A stretch of DNA of 64,000 nt, from contig CAXNJM010000001.1 of assembly GCA_964202895.1 (NCBI GenBank), positions 909,675 through 973,674 on the forward strand, in the 5' to 3' direction. Numbering within the stretch: position 1 is the first letter of the stretch; the number at the start of each line of letters is the position of its first letter. A program made the translations under genes and the position numbers. Of this stretch, positions 918 to 36,525 are shown piece by piece. The DNA comes from Rickettsiales bacterium UBA1997 (GTDB lineage: Bacteria; Pseudomonadota; Alphaproteobacteria; Rickettsiales; UBA1997). The notes under the pieces were generated by a model that saw only the letters and a list, made by a program, of their open reading frames with translations, had not been told where the DNA came from and did not search any database.

Positions 918-3164
918 TTATTTTTTTATATCGAAACGATCCGCATTCATAACTTTCGTCCAAGCCTTAACAAAATCTTTGACAAATTTTTCTTTACCAT
1001 CATCAGAGGCATAAACTTCTGCAACTGCACGAAGTTCGGCACTTGAACCAAAAACTAAATCAACAGAAGTAGCTTTCCACTTAAGTTTGCCAGTTTTTCT
1101 ATCGTAAGCCTCGTATAAACCTTCGACTTTAGTAGATTTTTTCCACTCATTAGACATATCAAGCAAATTTACAAAGAAATCATTGCTTAATGATCCGGTT
1201 TTTTTAGTCAAGATACCATATTCAGAATTGTCTGCATTTGCTCCTAAAGATCTCATTCCGCCAATTAAAGCAGTCATTTCTGGAACCGTTAAGCCAAGCA
1301 TATAAGCACGATCAATTAAAGAATTAATCGGCGATAATTTAGCATCTTTGCTGTAATAATTTCTAAAAGCATCAGCTTTAGGCTCTAAAACCGCAAAAGA
1401 TTTAATATCGGTATGATTTTGATTGGCATCAACTCTTCCCGCCTGAAATGGAACTTTAATTTTAAAGCCCGCTTCACGAGCACTTTTTTCAAGAGCAACA
1501 GAGCCTCCAAGCACTATAACATCCGCAAGAGAAACTTTTTTACCTTCCATTAAAGAATTATTAAAAGCTTTCTGAATTTTTTCCAAAGCACTAATAGTTT
1601 TATTCAATTCTTGAGGATTATTAACTGCCCAGTTTTTTTGAGGCTCTAGGCGGATTCTTGAACCATTGGCACCACCTCGCATATCAGTTACACGAAAAGA
1701 AGAAGCCGAAGCCCAAGAAGCCTTAACCAATTCAGAATTTTTTAAACCAGATGCTGAAATCTTGCTTTTTAATCTTTCAATATCAGAATTATTGATTAGA
1801 GCATGATTAATTTTAGGAAGAGGGTCTTGCCATGCAAATATTTCTTTCGGAGATTCCTTGCCAACATATCTAGCACTAGGACCAACATCCCGATGAGTTA
1901 ATTTAAACCAAGCTCTAGCAAAGGCTTTTTCAAATTCTTTTGGATTTTCTTGAAAATTTTTAGCAATCTTGCGATATTCTGGATCAAATTTTAATGATAA
2001 ATCTGTCGTCAACATAATCGGGGCAGTTCTCTTTGCGGGGTCATGAGCATCTGGCACTAGATTATTAGCATTTTTATCATCGGGAACCCACTGAATTGCA
2101 CCGCTAGGGCTTTTGGTTTTTATCCAATTAAAAGAAAATAAATTATTGAGATATTCATGAGTCCAAACAGCAGGGTTGGCCGTCCACGCACCTTCAAGAC
2201 CACTAGTTATAGTATCAACTCCCTTTCCTGTTTTGCATTTATTTTTCCAGCCAAGCCCCTGCTCTTCAATTGAGGCCGATGCAGGCTCAACATCAATACA
2301 TTTTTCTGCTTTATGAGCACCATGAGATTTTCCAAAAGTATGCCCTCCCGCAATTAATGCTACCGTTTCTTCGTCGTTCATTCCCATATTTGCAAATGTT
2401 TCACGAATTTGATGAGCCGCAGAAATAGGGTCTCCATTGCGGTTCGGACCTTCAGGATTAACATAGATTAAGCCCATTGTTGTTGCACCTAAAGGCTTTT
2501 CTATTTTGCCTTTATTATCAAAGCGATGACTTTTCATAAATTTATTTTCCGGACCCCAATATACTAGATCTGGCTCAAAATCATCCACTCTACCGCCAGC
2601 AAAACCAACGGTTTTAAAGCCCATCGATTCTAAAGCAACATTACCACTTAAAACCATTAGATCTGCCCAAGAAAGCTTATTGCCGTATTTCTTTTTAACT
2701 GGCCATAATAATCTTCTTGCCTTGTCTAAATTAGCATTATCTGGCCAACTATTAAGAGGCTCGAACCTTTGCTGTCCGCCTCCTGCACCGCCTCTTCCAT
2801 CTTCCGATCTATATGTTCCGGCACTATGCCAAGCCATTCTAATAAAGAACGGGCCATAATTACCATAATCTGCAGGCCACCATTCTTGCGAAGTAGTCAT
2901 AACCTTTTTTATTTCCGCTTTCAACAGATTAATATCAATTTTAGCAAATTCTTTAGCATAATTATAATTATCTTCGTAAGGGTTTGACTCTTTTGCTTGT
3001 TGACGAAGCGGAGATAGGTTTACTTTATTTGGCCACCAAAATTCATTTGGCTTAGCTTCAAAATTAGCATTATTTAATGCATTATTATTTTGAGCAGAAC
3101 AGCCCGTAATGGCAACGGAAGCAATAGCAAAAAGCTTATTGGCAAGAAGTTTATTGATTTTCAT
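918..3164 (-). CDS. katG: Catalase-peroxidase with N-terminal lipoprotein-type signal
   Basis: Distal [21 protein letters not shown], proximal [10 protein letters not shown]; two-domain length 748 aa. Confidence 0.97.
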
Positions 3165-3336
3165 TTTTAATTAAAGTTATTGTTTGATTTTAGAAAAATT
3201 ACCTAAGGAAATTTCTCAACAGTAAATAATTGATTTGTGGATGTTAATAATTTTAACAAAATTTTTTAAATAAATAAGTTAATTAATAAAATGTGTTATT
3301 TTAAAGCAATTTTTTACTTATCTTAAACATAAAAAC

Positions 3337-4035
3337 TTAATTAGTGGCAATTAGTTGCCAAGCAGAATTATTAAGCTTTGTATTTTTAGCAAAAACCCAA
3401 TTATCAATCAAATTAATTATCTGACTCTCTGCACCATCAATAACTCTGTTATTTTCGTCCATAACAAAATTGATTTGTCGACTAGCGAATTTTATCGCAA
3501 CTGAAAGATCGTCATCTTTTTTGCTAACCTTAATAATATCAACTTTATCAATAGCAATTATTCTGCTGTTCAGAGTTTTTTTAGAATTTTGTCTTAATAT
3601 TATGGCCTGCTCAAAATTATTAAAAATTAGGCCAGAAGTAAGTTCTTTTAATGATTTTAAATCGCTCTTTGCAAAAGATTCAACAATTTTTGTAAATGAA
3701 GATTTTATCTCTTCAACAAAAATATTAAATTCAGTGTTACTGGCTTTAAAAGCCTCTAATAAGTGATTTTTCTCTTCTTCCGCCAAATTGACTAAAAGTA
3801 AATTTTTAGCATTCTCTTCAGTTGAGCTTTGCCCCACTAGTTTGATTTCTTCTGGCTTGATTCCTTGTGTTGGTTGATTAGATGCGGTATTGCAAGAATT
3901 AGTAAAATTATTGCAACTGGATTTAGCGCGATTAATTATGTTTTCTCTTTCTTGCTCGTCTATTTTGCCAAGATGAGAATTTAATTTATAGAAAATTAAT
4001 ATTGCAACAACTGCAAAAAATATGATATCAAGCAT
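3337..4035 (-). CDS. Tim44/TimA family membrane-anchored protein
   Basis: MLDIIFFAVVAILIFYKL N-terminal anchor; C-terminal Tim44-like domain (VKFASRQI...DNWVFAK); start reset to ATG 4035 because the longer ORF runs through tRNA-His. Confidence 0.8.
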   Translation of the reverse strand: MLDIIFFAVVAILIFYKLNSHLGKIDEQERENIINRAKSSCNNFTNSCNTASNQPTQGIKPEEIKLVGQSSTEENAKNLLLVNLAEEEKNHLLEAFKASNTEFNIFVEEIKSSFTKIVESFAKSDLKSLKELTSGLIFNNFEQAIILRQNSKKTLNSRIIAIDKVDIIKVSKKDDDLSVAIKFASRQINFVMDENNRVIDGAESQIINLIDNWVFAKNTKLNNSAWQLIATN

Positions 4036-31646: not shown

Positions 31647-32387
31647 CTAACTAGTCGATAATATTGAATTTTCATTAATTGATTTTAAAATTTTAACCAT
31701 TTCGGCATTTGCCTCTTCTAGCTTGTTGTAATCAATAGATCTAAACACTAAAGATGTTCCTCCTTCAAACGGATAGCTACCCATTGAAACCTCTGAGTAT
31801 CTTTTTTGCATTTCGGTTAAAGATTTAGCAATTGCACTTTCGGTAAGGTTGATTTTTACTTCAATTGCTTTGATTTTTTTACCAACTTTTAACTGTGATT
31901 TAGCCACTTCAAACATTACTTGAAATATTTTTGGAATTCCTGCCATTACAAATACATTGCCAATTCTGAAGCCGGGGGCTGATGATATTGAATTTTCTAG
32001 TAAAGTTGCTGAACGAGGCATATAAGCCATTTTGAGCCTTGCTTCATTGATATTTTCTGCTCCATAGTGTTGAATTAATATTTGTTCAGCTATTAAATTT
32101 TTTTCAAATATATCGTCAAATGCTCTTGATATTGATTCGCTGGTAATATCATCGTGGGTAGGCCCTATTCCTCCGCTTGTAAAAACATAATCAAATTTAT
32201 TTCTTAGGCTGTTAACGGCAGAAATTATCTCCGCTTCAATATCGGCAACCACTCTTACTTCTTTGAGGCTGATGCCCATTTCTGTAAGGTTTTTAGCAAG
32301 AAAATTAATATTTTTATCTTCAGTTCTGCCAGATAAAATTTCGTCGCCAATTATTAATAAAGCACTAGTAATAGAATTGTTGGTCAT
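31647..32387 (-). CDS. CinA-like molybdopterin-binding domain protein
   Basis: IGDEILSGRTEDKN, GGIGPTHDDIT, MAGIP, SMGSYPF; start reset to ATG 32387, since the longer ORF overlaps tRNA-Arg. Confidence 0.9.
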   Translation of the reverse strand: MTNNSITSALLIIGDEILSGRTEDKNINFLAKNLTEMGISLKEVRVVADIEAEIISAVNSLRNKFDYVFTSGGIGPTHDDITSESISRAFDDIFEKNLIAEQILIQHYGAENINEARLKMAYMPRSATLLENSISSAPGFRIGNVFVMAGIPKIFQVMFEVAKSQLKVGKKIKAIEVKINLTESAIAKSLTEMQKRYSEVSMGSYPFEGGTSLVFRSIDYNKLEEANAEMVKILKSINENSILSTS

Positions 32388-32398
32388 TTTTTTAATTT

Positions 32399-32475
32399 TG
32401 GCGTGTTCGGCGGGAATTGAACCCACAACCCTTGCCTTCGGAAAGCAATACTCTATCCAATTGAGCTACGAACAC
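32399..32475 (-). tRNA. tRNA-Arg(CCG)
   Basis: Acceptor GTGTTCG/CGAACAC, anticodon arm TTGCT-TTCCGAA-GGCAA, encoded CCA. Confidence 0.97.
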
Positions 32476-32541
32476 TTATTGATATAGTTCTAAATATAAA
32501 TTTAAGCTTGAGTAATTTAAGTTAAATTGCTGTTTAAATAA

Positions 32542-33534
32542 TTATTTTCTAAAAATTGTATTATATATCAAGCTTTTTATGTATTGAATATCCTGATCTG
32601 CAAATTCGACTTCAATATCTAGGTAATTGATGATTTTTTGGTAAGATGATGGAAATTTTACCCAATCTTTCTTAGTTGTAATTAGTTGGCAGTTTTGTTC
32701 TTCTGCTTTTGTGATTAATTTTTTAAGCTCTTCGTTGTTGTAATAGTAATGATCGGCAAAGTTTATTTTTTCAATTAATGATAAATTTTGCTTAGTCAAA
32801 AAATTAAAAAATTTATCGGGATAGGCCAATCCACAGAATGCAAGATAATTTTTATTATTATCAAATAGCTCTAAATTCTTGCAAATAGTTTTAGCAAAAA
32901 TAATTTTGCCATGATAATTTTTTTTAATTAAATTTAAATTTTCATCGTTAATTTCATTGATTATAATCACTAAATCAGCCATCGCTAACCCCGATTTAAT
33001 ATTTTGACGAAGTGGGCCAGCGGGAATTAGCTTACAATTTCCAAAGGCTACAAAGCCATCAATTACAATTATTTTAATATCTTTAGATAGATTATTATTT
33101 TGTAGCCCGTCATCAAGAATTATTATTTCTGCTTCTTTCATTTGCTCTATTCTTTTAGCTCCAAAAGCTCTGTTCCTAGCGATAAAAGTTTTTGCTACTT
33201 CGTTAAGTAAAATTGCTTCATCACTAACCTTGGTTAATTGCTTCAATGCCTGATTAACGGATAAAAACTCTTGTTTTTCGCCTTTATAGCCCCTAGTAAG
33301 ATAAACGAATTTTTTGTTGATTAAGTTTTCAATAATTTTGCCAATAGCGATTGCTGTTGGTGTTTTGCCTGAACCGCCTGCAATTAAATTGCCAATACAG
33401 ATAACAGTTTTGTTGATTTTTGTTTTTTTAGTAAAAAAACCATCGATTTTTGTTGCTATTAAATAAACCCAACTTAATGGAATTAATATATAGCTAATTA
33501 TGTTGTTGGAAGACCAGAAGCGAGGAGTTTTCAT
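32542..33534 (-). CDS. lpxK: Tetraacyldisaccharide 4'-kinase
   Basis: MKTPRFW, GNLIAGGSGKTP, DDGLQ, PAGPLR, FADHY, TTKKD. Confidence 0.95.
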   Translation of the reverse strand: MKTPRFWSSNNIISYILIPLSWVYLIATKIDGFFTKKTKINKTVICIGNLIAGGSGKTPTAIAIGKIIENLINKKFVYLTRGYKGEKQEFLSVNQALKQLTKVSDEAILLNEVAKTFIARNRAFGAKRIEQMKEAEIIILDDGLQNNNLSKDIKIIVIDGFVAFGNCKLIPAGPLRQNIKSGLAMADLVIIINEINDENLNLIKKNYHGKIIFAKTICKNLELFDNNKNYLAFCGLAYPDKFFNFLTKQNLSLIEKINFADHYYYNNEELKKLITKAEEQNCQLITTKKDWVKFPSSYQKIINYLDIEVEFADQDIQYIKSLIYNTIFRK

Positions 33535-33645
33535 TATAAAATTAATAGTAAATAACAAAATATATTTTCATTTTTAAAATATATTGTCAATAATTGAAAA
33601 TTGGCTTTTATTTATTTGGGCATAATTTAAACCTCTAATCAGAAA

Positions 33646-34266
33646 ATGAAACTAACAATCTACAATATATTTATGTTGGTTAATGCTGTTTGTTGGGCCA
33701 TAACTTATCTTTTAATTATAAAGGCAAATTTTAGTTATAAAAAATGTGTGATGCCAACTTTTTCTCTTGCTACTAACATAAGCTGGGAAGCGATATTTTC
33801 TTTTGTTTATCCTCATCGAGTTCCGCAGATTTATTTTGATTATATTTGGCTTGCTCTAGATATTGTTATTTTTATGCAATTATTATTTTTTAAGCAAACA
33901 AATAAAGTAAATTTATTCTTGCTGTTGTTTTTGAGCTTTATATTCATCATTTTTGGTGTTTATAGTGGCGATAAATGGGGAATATATAGTGCTTTAATAA
34001 CAAATTTAATAATGTCGATTTTATTTATATTAGAGATATTTAAAAACAGGTCTGAGGGTCACTCTTTAGCAATTGGCTTGGCTAAAATGTTAGGAACAGC
34101 AATTGGATGTATCGCTATTATTTTTTATATTCCGCAAATGCAAAACTTATTTACGATAGTAATATTTATAGCCATTTTAATATTTGATTTTATTTATTGT
34201 ATGATGTTGGCTAAGTGTGTTAGAATATCGAATTTTTGCTTTCCACAACTATTTATAAAAAACTAG
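33646..34266 (+). CDS. PaxB/Pyr4-like integral-membrane terpene cyclase homologue
   Basis: CWAITYLLII, MPTFSLATNISWE, WLALD, C-terminal IFDFIY; multiple hydrophobic helices in 206 aa. Confidence 0.7.
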   Translation: MKLTIYNIFMLVNAVCWAITYLLIIKANFSYKKCVMPTFSLATNISWEAIFSFVYPHRVPQIYFDYIWLALDIVIFMQLLFFKQTNKVNLFLLLFLSFIFIIFGVYSGDKWGIYSALITNLIMSILFILEIFKNRSEGHSLAIGLAKMLGTAIGCIAIIFYIPQMQNLFTIVIFIAILIFDFIYCMMLAKCVRISNFCFPQLFIKN

Positions 34267-35364
34267 ATTTACAATATCGTTAATGGTTGTAAAAATCATT
34301 AAGCTAATTAAAATTGCGAAACCAATGCGGAAGGCGATTTCTTGTACCTTTACATTAATTGGTCTACCAATAATTGCCTCTATCAAATAAAACAATAAAT
34401 GCCCGCCATCAAGCATTGGAATTGGCAATAGGTTCATTACCCCAAGATTAATTGATATCATTGCTCCAAACCACAAAACCATCATTATGCCGAGTTCAAT
34501 GGTTTTTCCTGAGTATTGTGCTATTTTTACTGGCCCGCCCAATTCTTTGATTGATCTTTTGCCAATTAATAATTCTTTTAAAGTTTTTAGAATAGTGTTT
34601 GAAATTTGCCAAGTTTCAATATTTGCTTTAGCAAAAGATTGAAAAATATTCAATTCATGATGTTGAATGTCGGTAGCAATGACCCCGATTGTTGGTAATT
34701 TCATTTTTTCTTTAAAGATATTTTCAACTTCAACTAATTCTGGAGTTAAATTAAAATTTAATTTTTGTTCATCTCTAATTGCCGTTATTGATATTTCGCT
34801 AGTTCCTGCTTCAATTATTGCAATTCTTAACTCATCAAAATCGTTAATTTTTTTATTATTGATGCTAATAATTTGATCGCCTTTTTTTAATTCCGCTAGT
34901 TCTGCTGGGCTGTTGGGTTTTATATCGCTAATTTTATTGGCAACAACATTATGCCCGCGAATATTGAAAATAAAGGTTAGAATGATTATTGCTAAGATGA
35001 AATTGGCAATTGGGCCCGCTGAAACAATTGCTATTCTTTGATAAACATTTTTAAAAACAAAGCTTTGTTTTTTTTCTGCCTCCGACATTTTATTAAATGC
35101 TGTAAAATTAGGCTTTGAAGCGGGGTTAGCATCGCCAAACATTTTAACATATCCACCGAAAGGCAACCAGCAAAATTTCCACCTAGTGTTATAGCGATCA
35201 TAAAAGCCAAAAATTTCCTTACCAAAACCGATTGAAAATTCTTCGATCTTAACTTTACAGGCTCTGGCAACAATAAAATGCCCGAATTCGTGAATAAAAA
35301 CAATTGCCGACATAATGATGATGAAGGCAAATAAATTTTGAATTATGATATTGATAATTGACAT
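34249..35364 (-). CDS. rseP: RIP metalloprotease
   Basis: HEFGH, GGYVKM, AGPIANF, PDZ domain, NLLPIPMLDGG. Confidence 0.95.
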   Translation of the reverse strand: MSIINIIIQNLFAFIIIMSAIVFIHEFGHFIVARACKVKIEEFSIGFGKEIFGFYDRYNTRWKFCWLPFGGYVKMFGDANPASKPNFTAFNKMSEAEKKQSFVFKNVYQRIAIVSAGPIANFILAIIILTFIFNIRGHNVVANKISDIKPNSPAELAELKKGDQIISINNKKINDFDELRIAIIEAGTSEISITAIRDEQKLNFNLTPELVEVENIFKEKMKLPTIGVIATDIQHHELNIFQSFAKANIETWQISNTILKTLKELLIGKRSIKELGGPVKIAQYSGKTIELGIMMVLWFGAMISINLGVMNLLPIPMLDGGHLLFYLIEAIIGRPINVKVQEIAFRIGFAILISLMIFTTINDIVNLVFYK

Positions 35365-35367
35365 TTT

Positions 35368-36525
35368 TTAAAATATTGAGTTGGCGATTGTTCTTGCTTG
35401 CTTATCGCAAGCGATTATTTCTTCAATTGTTGATAGCTTGCGATGATTAATTTGGTTGAGGCTTTTTTCAATAATGGTAGTGATTTTATCAAAGGTAATT
35501 TCTTTGTTTAAAAATTTATTAACCGCCACTTCGTTCGCTCCATTTAAAACAACTAAGGCGCTGCCTTCTGTTTCTAGGGCTTGCATGCATAATTTTACAG
35601 CAGGAAACTGCAAATAATCAACTTCAAAAAATTCAAGTTTATTGATTTTTGCTAGGTCAAATTTTTTAATCAATTGATATTGGTATAAATCGAGCCTCTT
35701 AGGAAATTCAAGAGCATAGGAAATTGGGGTTTTCATATCGGGGTAGCTAAGCATTGCAAGGCTAGAGCCATCTTTATATTCCACCATGCCGTGAATAATT
35801 GATTGTGGATGAATTAAGATTTTTAATTGTGATTTTGCAACAGGAAATAGGCGGTAGGCTTCTATCATTTCTAGGCCTTTATTCATCATTGTGGCACAAT
35901 CAATTGATATTTTTGCCCCCATTTGCCAATTAGGATGTTTTAATGCCTCTTCAATTGTGATATTTTCAGGGTCTTTTTGATTGCGAAAAAACGGCCCTCC
36001 AGAGGCGGTAATGGTGATTTTTTCGATGTTGTTAAGGTTGTTTTGTTCGAAGATTTGGAAAATCGCATTATGCTCAGAATCAATTGGCAGTAGGTTTATT
36101 TTTGATTTTTTAACTTCTTCCATAATGATATCGCCAGCAACAACTAAAGATTCCTTATTGGCAATGGCAATGTTAGAGCCTGCTTTAATGGCATTTAAAG
36201 TTGGTAAAACCCCCGCAGAGCCAACAATTGCTGAAAATAAAATATCGCATTTAATTTTTGCAATTTCGTTAATTGATTCCGTTCCCGACATTACCTGACA
36301 ATTATTGATTTGCGATAATGAATCTTTAACAATTTGATAATATTTTTTATTTTCAATTACTACAAATAAAGGCTTTAATATCAAGGCTTGAGAAATTAAT
36401 TCTTGAAAATTTTCTTTTGCTGTTAGGGCGATAATTTGATATTTTTCTAATTCTACCTTGATAATTTCAACAACATTTTTGCCAATTGAACCTGTCGAGC
36501 CTAGAATCGTGATGGTTTTTGCCAT
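35368..36525 (-). CDS. dxr: 1-deoxy-D-xylulose-5-phosphate reductoisomerase
   Basis: LGSTGSIG, ANKESL, DSEHNAIFQ, HPNWQMGAKI, NKGLE. Confidence 0.97.
   Translation of the reverse strand: MAKTITILGSTGSIGKNVVEIIKVELEKYQIIALTAKENFQELISQALILKPLFVVIENKKYYQIVKDSLSQINNCQVMSGTESINEIAKIKCDILFSAIVGSAGVLPTLNAIKAGSNIAIANKESLVVAGDIIMEEVKKSKINLLPIDSEHNAIFQIFEQNNLNNIEKITITASGGPFFRNQKDPENITIEEALKHPNWQMGAKISIDCATMMNKGLEMIEAYRLFPVAKSQLKILIHPQSIIHGMVEYKDGSSLAMLSYPDMKTPISYALEFPKRLDLYQYQLIKKFDLAKINKLEFFEVDYLQFPAVKLCMQALETEGSALVVLNGANEVAVNKFLNKEITFDKITTIIEKSLNQINHRKLSTIEEIIACDKQARTIANSIF

Follow-up and report, generated by a model that had tools for sequence, protein, structure and literature searches.

Locus and gene neighborhood

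The window analyzed here (the whole stretch of 64,000 nucleotides) comes from a member of the Rickettsiales and carries, at positions 33646..34266 of the forward strand, an open reading frame (ORF) for a protein of 206 amino acids with seven predicted transmembrane (TM) helices, which we refer to as Pyr4-like. Sequence and ORF checks found it intact as first described. An in-frame methionine, M10 (position 33673), might be the true start, and it coincides with the start of the cluster representative P0001; despite this, the N terminus MKLT.YNI is kept by an orthologue with 81% identity. Upstream, on the opposite strand, lies lpxK (32542-33558), identified by PF02606 on its orthologue and 86 to 95% identical in the related genomes G203 and G201; its true start is likely the ATG at ∼33535 (MKTPRFW). 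Downstream, also on the minus strand, are the core-operon genes rseP (34249-35364) and, beyond it, dxr (35368-36525), the orthologues of which match PF02163 and PF02670. The other neighbors are rbfA and a gene with a MoCF domain.

By their coordinates, the Pyr4-like gene and rseP converge and overlap at their 3' ends by 18 nucleotides (34249..34266), an overlap that is absent from the orthologue locus (8600 versus 8603 in locus L003). The divergent spacer toward lpxK (33559..33645) is presumed to be the promoter region, with promoter-like matches in the spacer region showing no excess over shuffled sequences (11 versus 8.6 ± 3.0). No prenyltransferase or oxidase gene adjoins the Pyr4-like gene, either in the window or at the orthologue locus, and no phage carriage of the gene was found. 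The sequence-only reading had described this ORF with its motifs, its setting between lpxK and rseP-dxr, its overlap with rseP, its orphan status, and a Rickettsiales-like host, all of which were recovered here.

Family membership and predicted fold

A Pfam search assigned the protein, far beyond chance, to PF25129, the Pyr4-like transmembrane terpene cyclases (E = 7.5e-15; score, 55.7 bits; gathering cutoff, 27), with residues 5-191 aligned to profile positions 16-224 of 227; the genome-level search gave 53.6 bits. No other Pfam family matched it even at E ≤ 10, including PF04193, PF03083, and PF00810. Homologues at E ≤ 1e-3 numbered 568 representatives, and all 118 aligned relatives match PF25129. 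By profile, the protein thus belongs to the Pyr4/PaxB family, as had been proposed from its motifs.

The AlphaFold2 (AF2) model is a seven-helix bundle (pLDDT 93.8; pTM 0.88) with helices predicted at residues 5-31, 38-54, 61-81, 87-106, 113-134, 141-161, and 168-198, an architecture that has been reported for Pyr4 and its bacterial homologues (SI Fig. S1 of PMC13307353). It had been suggested that a structural search favoring another fold, such as that of a PQ-loop transporter, would speak against the assignment. The best solved structures found by Foldseek were indeed the KDEL receptor, the PQ-loop protein cystinosin, and SWEET (TM score, 0.5 to 0.63; probability, ∼1.0), which resemble the window protein in size and helix count; but the E values are weak (0.02 to 0.5), and neither sequence nor profile searches turned up a Pyr4-family structure in the PDB, which is why the fold search returned distant seven-helix carriers only. 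These weak matches probably describe the fold class to which the modeled family belongs and leave membership in PF25129 unaffected. A canonical class II terpene cyclase of the squalene-hopene or oxidosqualene cyclase type was ruled out: the model shows a bundle of seven membrane helices in place of alpha/alpha-barrel domains, and no ORF of at least 100 amino acids in the genome contains a DxDDTA motif.

Conserved residues

The family signature reads W17-AI-T-Y21-LL-II ... M36-P37 ... L-A-T-N44-I-S-W47-E48 in the ORF, followed late in the protein by F180-D181-F-I-Y184. Conservation was counted in an alignment (A2) of 118 relatives. In the TM2 motif N44-I-S-W47-E48 (33775..33789), N44 is invariant (118/118), and W47 and E48 are each kept in 116 relatives; the E48 codon, gaa (33787-33789), would encode the candidate Brønsted acid. 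In the TM7 motif (34183..34197), D181 (codon gat, 34186-34188) is conserved in 115/118 and Y184 in 117/118. A third acidic residue, D72 in the middle of TM3 (33859..33861), is likewise kept in 115 of the 118, so that E48, D72, and D181 are each 97 to 98% conserved. The other conserved polar and aromatic positions, N120, M123, and S124 in TM5 and K147 in TM6, also lie within predicted TM helices.

Glu63 and Asp218 are the published active-site residues of Pyr4 (PMC6486709), and for the family as a whole the catalytic acid has been proposed to be the conserved glutamate (SI Fig. S1 of PMC13307353). On the profile, E48 maps to about position 59 and D181 to about position 214, in each case four short of the Pyr4 residue number. 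From its conservation, these profile coordinates, and AdrI Asp59, which lies four residues upstream and corresponds to N44, we infer that E48 is the equivalent of Pyr4 E63; D181, on conservation and profile position, is a candidate equivalent of D218. The conserved TM2 glutamate and TM7 aspartate expected from the motifs are present. Cyclase activity of the window protein is a plausible deduction from these sequence features.

The same family membership, compact seven-helix architecture, and TM2 glutamate and TM7 aspartate appear to be shared with the fungal cyclases Pyr4 (pyripyropene, Aspergillus fumigatus) and PaxB (paxilline). These enzymes act on epoxidized prenyl-polyketides or indoles, and their clusters hold a UbiA-like or PaxC prenyltransferase, a flavin monooxygenase (FMO) epoxidase, and a polyketide synthase (PKS), none of which is adjacent to the window gene. 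The prokaryotic members XiaH (xiamycin), DmtA1 (drimentine), TylF (tolypodiol), GroF, and ZigF (zigralone) share the family and the proposed glutamate Brønsted acid with the window protein, but they lie inside biosynthetic clusters, mostly of Actinomycetota and cyanobacteria, whereas the relatives of the window gene stand alone. Pseudomonadota account for only 10 of 264 cluster-associated sequences, and Rickettsiales for none (SI Table S2 of PMC13307353).

A stand-alone prokaryotic subfamily

The sequence-only reading called the protein an orphan and set it against the fungal and actinomycete clusters, among them those of XiaH and DmtA1. This framing does not fit, and the gene is no lone oddity: the protein is a member of a large stand-alone prokaryotic subfamily and not a gene-cluster meroterpenoid cyclase. 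Its subfamily relatives (33 to 42% identity) are found in ammonia-oxidizing archaea, Nostoc, Hymenobacteraceae, Chloroflexota, and others, including Bacteroidota, and the subfamily is vertically inherited inside Nitrosopumilus, Nitrososphaeraceae, Nostoc, and Hymenobacteraceae. A homologue on a plasmid of S. clavuligerus (92.5 bits) is itself uncharacterized.

No conserved neighbor emerged from 80 related loci of archaea and at least eight bacterial phyla. A polyprenyl synthase is nearby in 2 of these loci, and the remaining 78 have no terpenoid genes nearby. Recurrent neighbors are lineage specific: an aldo-keto reductase in the syntenic loci of Hymenobacteraceae and a short-chain dehydrogenase/reductase (SDR) in two loci of Rubrobacteraceae (L006 and L011). 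An isopentenyl phosphate kinase gene is a neighbor only on a plasmid of N. punctiforme. Cluster association would require a neighboring gene for a scaffold synthase, for an enzyme of prenyl supply or transfer (polyprenyl synthase or prenyltransferase), or for an oxidase (P450 or epoxidase); the window gene has no such neighbor.

Back and colleagues reportedly also noted, in 2023, a class of stand-alone pyr4-like genes. Such genes are the majority in both bacteria and fungi (Tang and Matsuda, 2024, PMC11109268; Kakumu and Helfrich, 2026, PMC13307353 SI): in fungi, 690 of 1,050 loci have no additional core gene (∼66%), and in bacteria 843 of 1,107 candidates (∼76% in one survey) were filtered out as having no terpenoid neighbors. 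They have been judged unlikely to take part in meroterpenoid biosynthesis (SI of PMC13307353; PMC11109268). Like the members of this class, the window gene has the Pyr4-family profile and stands as a single gene, with neither core biosynthetic nor terpenoid genes in its vicinity; it differs in its reduced-genome Rickettsiales host with a very small isoprenoid repertoire, in its long branch, and in being present or absent between near-identical genomes.

The strongest rival to a cyclase function arises here. The stand-alone subfamily might consist of seven-helix carriers or sensors resembling SWEET, PQ-loop proteins, or the KDEL receptor, with buried Glu, Asp, and Lys residues serving proton coupling or ligand binding and the terpene cyclases as a derived offshoot. 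The top Foldseek matches point in this direction, as do the absence of terpenoid genes near 78 of the 80 loci, the doubts in the literature about a meroterpenoid role, vertical inheritance in small-genome lineages with no known meroterpenoids, such as Nitrosopumilus, and the weak match of one of the 118 relatives to MtN3_slv (E = 0.0011). Against it, however, the Foldseek E values were at least 0.02, with no Pyr4-family PDB entry to compete; the window protein shows no significant profile relationship to these carriers, with no PQ-loop, MtN3, or ER_lumen_recept Pfam match at E ≤ 10; the 3+1+3 duplication is not detectable in its sequence (hhalign of TM1-3 against TM5-7, probability 0.6%); and the near-invariant residues are those called catalytic in the cyclases. 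We consider a carrier or sensor a real possibility, although a distinctly less probable one than a cyclase.

Isoprenoid repertoire of the genome and an orphan UbiA-type gene

The host has a reduced genome of 1.42 Mb with a very small isoprenoid repertoire. It encodes UbiA, an IspB-like synthase, farnesyl diphosphate (FPP) synthase, and one UbiH-type hydroxylase. Neither a squalene/phytoene synthase nor a P450 heme motif was found in the genome, and the one FAD-dependent hydroxylase of the kind that acts on aromatic rings or forms epoxides resembles UbiH, leaving no epoxidase candidate. There is also no PKS; like the missing epoxidase and the missing adjacent prenyltransferase, this counts against the cyclase reading.

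The nearest prenyltransferase genes lie 78 to 86 kb from the Pyr4-like gene. One of them, at 78 kb (G000:C1:1021653-1022453), is an orphan UbiA-type gene that by NCBIfam is neither ubiA nor heme O synthase. It is translationally coupled to a gene for a polytopic protein of 289 amino acids rich in His, Asp, and Glu, which is conserved in homologous pairs (alignment A3); the two genes together span G000:C1:1021653-1023325. The genome search proposed by the sequence-only reading for prenyltransferase and epoxidase genes thus succeeded for the former and came back empty for the latter. The orphan UbiA module is the best candidate partner of the Pyr4-like protein, as a lead only.

A more specific version of the cyclase reading would join these genes into a dispersed three-gene pathway, in which the orphan UbiA protein and its 289-amino-acid partner make and modify a prenylated acceptor that the Pyr4-like protein cyclizes, a minimal route to a membrane lipid of meroterpenoid-like kind. 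A UbiA-type prenyltransferase and a Pyr4-like cyclase are a canonical pairing, as in the zig cluster (PMC13307353). The UbiA-type and Pyr4-like genes each occur in 1 of 201 sampled genomes of the order and, among 20 relatives, in the same two, G000 (the genome of the window) and G203. The UbiA island likewise does not appear in the assembly of G201, a genome that has lost the Pyr4-like gene, and the contig there breaks at an insertion sequence (IS) element at the island border; but this assembly is only 79% complete, which weakens the absence. Furthermore, the two genomes are from sister species, so the co-occurrence does not count as an independent observation and may reflect shared ancestry; 78 kb separate the genes; homologues of the UbiA-type gene (43 to 45% identity) on other contigs lack a Pyr4-like gene within 7 to 12 kb of the pair; and the model of the partner is poor (pLDDT 58). 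Such a pathway is unlikely and is no more than a lead.

Gain, maintenance, and loss of the gene

Across wider samples, the Pyr4-like gene was found in 1 of 401 genomes of the class, and within the genus it is confined to G000 and G203. In G203, a congener, the orthologue lies at the same position with identical synteny. In the tree, this Rickettsiales pair sits on a long stem (2.69 substitutions per site), and no sister group has the support to name a donor lineage; nor does a recent transfer show in the GC content, which is 27% for the gene versus 31% genome-wide. The closest genome, G201, has no copy: its locus (L105) aligns with the window on either side of the gene (blastn; 954-2499 with 32001-33543 at 96.0% identity and 2517-3998 with 34258-35739 at 97.4%), so that a segment of ∼714 bp (33544..34257), comprising the gene and its upstream spacer, is missing; dxr, rseP, and lpxK are contiguous, with ∼25 nucleotides from the rseP stop to the lpxK start. 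The ancestor of a small clade of freshwater Rickettsiales acquired the gene horizontally, between rseP and lpxK; the gene is under purifying selection in two species and was recently lost from a third. Loss from the nearest relative shows that it is dispensable.

This loss might also be read as decay of a leftover from past transfer with no current function, as might the variable C-terminal tail of the protein and a dN/dS of 0.225 against the orthologue, which exceeds the 0.07 to 0.13 of the core neighbor genes. A value of 0.225 nevertheless indicates purifying selection, two species separated by a dS of ∼0.4 both have an intact frame, and all family-invariant residues are retained, which makes decay very improbable.

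Weaker still, and rejected, is a functional tie to the neighbors, either as a partner of lpxK in modifying lipid A or other envelope lipids or as a member of the dxr/rseP isoprenoid-envelope operon: it has in its favor only the position between lpxK and rseP-dxr, conserved in one congener, whereas the gene is on the strand opposite to both neighbors, none of the 80 related loci shares lpxK, rseP, or dxr as neighbors, a check of ten further genomes from its GTDB family turned up no homologue of dxr, rseP, or the Pyr4-like gene within the ∼1.5 kb around lpxK, and in the closest genome, which lacks the gene, rseP abuts lpxK. The proximity to dxr, which had been suspected of being a coincidence, is thus coincidental, as is that to lpxK. 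Since the gene was gained, kept, and lost in this way, we regard it as accessory and as functionally unconnected to the genes of lipid A and of the methylerythritol phosphate (MEP) pathway.

Proposed function

At roughly even odds (a probability of about 0.5), we propose from the sequence evidence that the gene encodes an intact, selectively kept stand-alone member of PF25129 that acts as a prenyl-lipid cyclase, accessory to its host and horizontally acquired. As in the characterized family members, the TM2 glutamate would act as the Brønsted acid, assisted by the TM7 aspartate, and would protonate a C=C bond of a membrane-resident prenyl chain, leading to carbo- or oxa-cyclization. An epoxide substrate seems unlikely in a genome in which no candidate epoxidase was found. 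In DmtA1, olefins are protonated without an epoxide, so this chemistry is possible in the Pyr4-like family. The available prenyl pool would comprise FPP, a long-chain polyprenyl diphosphate, ubiquinone and its intermediates, undecaprenyl phosphate, and the product of the orphan UbiA protein; given this small pool, a prenylated quinone or aromatic lipid would be the most likely substrate.

A wider and considerably more speculative proposal is that stand-alone Pyr4-like proteins in general are a widespread, so far unrecognized class of membrane enzymes. Their substrate would be a housekeeping prenyl lipid (a quinone or quinol, for instance) or else whatever an orphan UbiA protein makes, and they would cyclize it or activate it by acid in another way. 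Here, the UbiA-type gene and its His-rich membrane protein would be the partners, and the three would make up a minimal, dispersed pathway that ends in a cyclized prenyl-aromatic membrane lipid.

For the present, the gene counts as accessory in an uncultured bacterium, and the link to lipid A and the MEP pathway that made it look special is a coincidence. Only the cluster-embedded minority of Pyr4-like genes has been studied so far, as natural-product cyclases. A genome of 1.4 Mb with few possible prenyl substrates, together with a near-identical pair of genomes with and without the gene, makes this a compact test case for the stand-alone class. Should the protein prove to be a carrier, terpene cyclases would have arisen from a transporter-like fold; should it cyclize a quinone-type lipid, membrane lipids would be shown to undergo a modification of a new kind. 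Under the wider proposal, the tiny isoprenoid repertoire of this genome would make it the simplest system for assigning a function to approximately three-quarters of all bacterial Pyr4-like genes.

Family membership and conserved residues of the Pyr4-like protein

The Pyr4-like gene is an open frame of 206 amino acids at window positions 33646 to 34266 (+ strand). It lies between lpxK (32542 to 33558, − strand) and rseP (34249 to 35364, − strand), the latter followed by dxr (35368 to 36525, − strand), and its final 18 nt run into the 3′ end of rseP. The encoded protein contains the motifs W17..T-Y21..I-I, M36-P37, L-A-T-N44-I-S-W47-E48, and F180-D181-F-I-Y184. ORF, motifs, placement, and overlap had all been described in a sequence-only reading and were confirmed on the sequence, and its assignment to the Pyr4/PaxB type was borne out by the Pfam profile PF25129 (Pyr4-like transmembrane terpene cyclases; hmmscan against Pfam-A, E = 7.5e-15, 55.7 bits versus a curated cut-off of 27). 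The alignment covers residues 5 to 191, corresponding to profile positions 16 to 224 of 227. No second Pfam-A family was matched even at E ≤ 10, nor did any NCBIfam model match the protein. When 1.84 billion cluster representatives were searched exhaustively with phmmer, 568 relatives were recovered at E ≤ 1e-3 (168 at E ≤ 1e-10), and all 118 relatives that were aligned matched PF25129 (best E, 1e-34). On the features tested, the window protein is a member of the Pyr4-like family.

The mechanically called lpxK ORF starts with TTG (33558, MLFTINFIMKTPRFW), but an ATG ∼24 nt downstream (MKTPRFW; region 33535 to 33558) is the likelier conserved start. Relatives align from residues 6 to 9, and the rseP stop of the closest genome (G201, which does not carry the Pyr4-like gene) is only ∼25 nt from this ATG.

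N44 and P37 are present in all 118 aligned sequences, and the acidic residues E48 (116/118), D72 (115/118), and D181 (115/118) are kept, as are K147 (110/118, with Arg in 6 more) and the aromatic residues W17 (117/118), W47 (116/118), W68 (116/118), and Y184 (117/118). The active-site residues of Pyr4 are given as E63 and D218 in PMC6486709, which cites the original Pyr4 work; the Brønsted acid of bacterial and fungal members is taken to be the conserved Glu, except in AdrI, where Asp59 serves in its place (SI of PMC13307353). With residue 5 at profile position 16 and residue 191 at position 224, E48 falls at about position 59 and D181 at about 214, both offset by 4 from Pyr4 residues 63 and 218, and N44 precedes E48 by four residues, the same spacing as Asp59 to Glu63. 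Profile coordinates and spacing thus suggest that E48 and D181 are the equivalents of E63 and D218. Such equivalents had been proposed from the sequence; both residues are conserved and their offsets are consistent, and the equivalence itself stays putative.

Predicted structure and the carrier alternative

The confident AlphaFold2 model built on the alignment (pLDDT 93.8, pTM 0.88) has seven helices (residues 5-31, 38-54, 61-81, 87-106, 113-134, 141-161, and 168-198), an architecture that agrees with the one described for Pyr4 and homologues from bacteria (SI Fig. S1 of PMC13307353). The positive-inside rule, applied to the sequence, would put the N-terminus outside and the C-terminus inside, with E48, D72, and D181 located in the outer to middle region of the bilayer. 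Sequence and profile searches found no Pyr4-family chain in the PDB, and the Foldseek matches were accordingly confined to distant carriers with seven helices (KDEL receptor, cystinosin, and SWEET; TM 0.5 to 0.63, E = 0.02 to 0.5).

Since carrier folds came top, the chief alternative to a cyclase function, and a live one, is that the stand-alone clade as a whole acts as carriers or sensors; 1 of the 118 relatives also weakly matches MtN3_slv (E = 0.0011). However, the structural matches are weak and had no Pyr4 structure to compete with, the window protein gives no PQ-loop, MtN3, or KDELR signal in Pfam, and hhalign detects no internal repeat of TM1-3 versus TM5-7. Although the sequence-only reading had named such a structural result as a refutation, we therefore do not take the carrier matches as refuting membership of the cyclase family. 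We regard a carrier or sensor role as less likely than a cyclase function.

A stand-alone subfamily in archaea and bacteria

The nearest relative, at 81% identity, is encoded in a freshwater-metagenome MAG labelled "Rickettsiales bacterium" with identical synteny (lpxK, the gene on the opposite strand, rseP-dxr-rbfA); all further relatives are at most 42% identical. Scanning one genome per GTDB species gave 80 loci, distributed over archaea (Nitrososphaeraceae and Nitrosopumilus, about 20; Methanoperedens) and bacteria, including Nostoc, Hymenobacteraceae (Pontibacter, Rufibacter, and Adhaeribacter), Chloroflexota (Anaerolineales and Ktedonobacter), Rubrobacteraceae, Planctomycetota, two Bacillota, and others. 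Clustering of the 1096 neighbouring ORFs revealed no partner gene common to different lineages; a polyprenyl synthase lies within 8 kb at 2 of the 80 loci, and a UbiA-type transferase, UbiH-type flavoenzyme, or P450 motif lies near the gene at none. The window gene is therefore a stand-alone Pyr4-like gene, a kind already on record: only 264 of 1107 bacterial candidates had terpenoid genes within 20 kb, and the authors of that survey judged the stand-alone subset unlikely to take part in meroterpenoid biosynthesis (PMC13307353 and SI), and in fungi 690 of 1050 loci lacked any further core gene (PMC11109268). Our literature search found no paper that gives this subset a function. In a maximum-likelihood tree, inheritance is vertical inside Nitrosopumilus, Nitrososphaeraceae, Nostoc, and Hymenobacteraceae; a long stem (2.69 substitutions per site) leads to the two Rickettsiales sequences, for which no sister group is supported.

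Several loci had features of their own. In the ammonia-oxidising archaea (Nitrososphaeraceae and Nitrosopumilus loci among L026 to L076), whose genomes are small and which are not known to make meroterpenoids, the subfamily is widespread and vertically inherited (about 20 of 80 loci), with clades at 100% support. To our knowledge, no enzyme has yet been assigned to the formation of crenarchaeol's cyclohexane ring; a crenarchaeol-specific role is argued against by the presence of the same subfamily in Methanoperedens and many bacteria. Nostoc also carries copies on conjugative or mobilizable plasmids (three plasmid matches). On pNPUN02 of Nostoc punctiforme PCC 73102 (L131, 6986-7633 and 8008-8760), the next gene encodes an isopentenyl phosphate kinase and overlaps an IS4 transposase gene; the pairing with the kinase was not seen again in the other loci. 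A short-chain dehydrogenase directly follows the gene in Rubrobacteraceae-type loci (L006, 1711-2622; L011, 10684-11469), and in Hymenobacteraceae an aldo-keto reductase lies one or two genes downstream; these lineage-specific redox neighbours might point to a small module for lipid modification. The 1.8-Mb linear plasmid pCLA1 of Streptomyces clavuligerus carries an unannotated Pyr4-TMTC homologue (L130, 9629-10642; 92.5 bits), with a carbamoyltransferase and a TauD-type dioxygenase nearby; the gene table of the plasmid-collection record is incomplete, with no gene entered there.

A probable single gain and recent loss within the genus

Above the cut-off, PF25129 is absent from the other 200 sampled genomes of the order and the other 400 of the class. 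Within the genus, the source genome (G000) and G203 carry the gene, and G202 and G201 lack it. The flanks in G201 are 96 to 97% DNA-identical to the window, yet 714 bp (33544-34257) are missing, leaving ∼25 nt between rseP stop and lpxK start on one contig running from obg to dxr. G203 is more distant (84 to 91% amino acid identity of flanking genes) and carries the gene, with a dS of 0.40, similar to the 0.47 to 0.97 of its neighbours. Most simply, the gene was gained once, in the common ancestor, and was recently deleted in G201. With a dN/dS of 0.225, compared to 0.07 to 0.13 for the core neighbours, the gene is under purifying selection but dispensable.

We rejected the lipid A/isoprenoid neighbourhood as functional context: it is an accident of the insertion site, because G201 keeps the flanks without the gene and because, in ten other genomes of the taxonomic family, no rseP, dxr, or Pyr4-like homologue was detected in the ∼1.5 kb flanking lpxK. 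The earlier suspicion that the proximity to dxr is coincidence was thus well founded.

Candidate substrates and an orphan UbiA gene

Searches of the whole source genome (1.42-Mb assembly, 98% complete) detected two UbiA-family genes, two polyprenyl synthases, and one clear FAD_binding_3 hydroxylase, and no squalene/phytoene synthase; NCBIfam identified a 4-hydroxybenzoate polyprenyltransferase UbiA, a long-chain (IspB-like) synthase, an FPP synthase, and a UbiH-family hydroxylase. From this enzyme set, the available prenyl lipids are limited to FPP, long-chain polyprenyl diphosphate, and ubiquinone with its intermediates, to which we presume undecaprenyl phosphate belongs as well. Neither a P450 haem motif nor a DxDDTA motif occurs in any ORF of at least 100 amino acids. 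The search proposed for prenyltransferase and epoxidase genes thus returned the two UbiA-family prenyltransferases but no epoxidase candidate, and any cyclase here would therefore have to protonate an olefin directly. DmtA1 does so in drimentine biosynthesis. NCBIfam classes neither of the only two UbiA-family genes detected as a haem O synthase; CtaB/CyoE, and with it haem A/O oxidases, may be missing from the organism, or its gene may be in the ∼2% that the assembly does not cover.

The second UbiA-family gene (G000:C1:1021653-1022453) lies outside the window, 78 kb from the Pyr4-like gene, in an island of three co-oriented genes (G000:C1:1015059-1023325; L022, 3060-11326). It is divergent, neither ubiA nor ctaB (haem O synthase), and its best NCBIfam match is a generic "prenyltransferase" (45 bits, far under the model's cut-off). 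A 2189-amino-acid ORF with no Pfam match at all precedes it, and it overlaps the start of a translationally coupled ORF for a polytopic membrane protein of 289 amino acids with invariant His34, His88, Asp92-Glu93, His191, and His258, whose predicted model (pLDDT 58) is too poor for a structure search. The orphan gene matches the Pyr4-like gene in rarity and distribution (only G000 and G203 among 20 relatives; 1 of 201 genomes of the order). As a UbiA-type transferase and a Pyr4-like cyclase form a classical pairing, it is a genuine lead, but a weak one, because the two carriers are sister species and because homologous UbiA-partner pairs (43 to 45% identity) recur on other Rickettsiales-like contigs (L127 and L128) with no Pyr4-like gene within 7 to 12 kb. 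In G201 (assembly 79% complete) the island was not seen, and the contig there stops in an IS element at the border. This contig end (G201:C99; L125, 1-389) resembles the 3′ end of an IS transposase gene and falls exactly at the right-hand border of the island (G000:C1:1023147); a ∼104-bp stretch at this border also occurs on G201:C16 (85% identity).

The window protein belongs to a recognised kind, the stand-alone Pyr4-like membrane proteins. In the best mechanistic reading, to which we give about even odds, the conserved Glu would start a class-II-like cyclisation of a membrane prenyl-aromatic lipid, a substrate that the orphan UbiA module would possibly supply.
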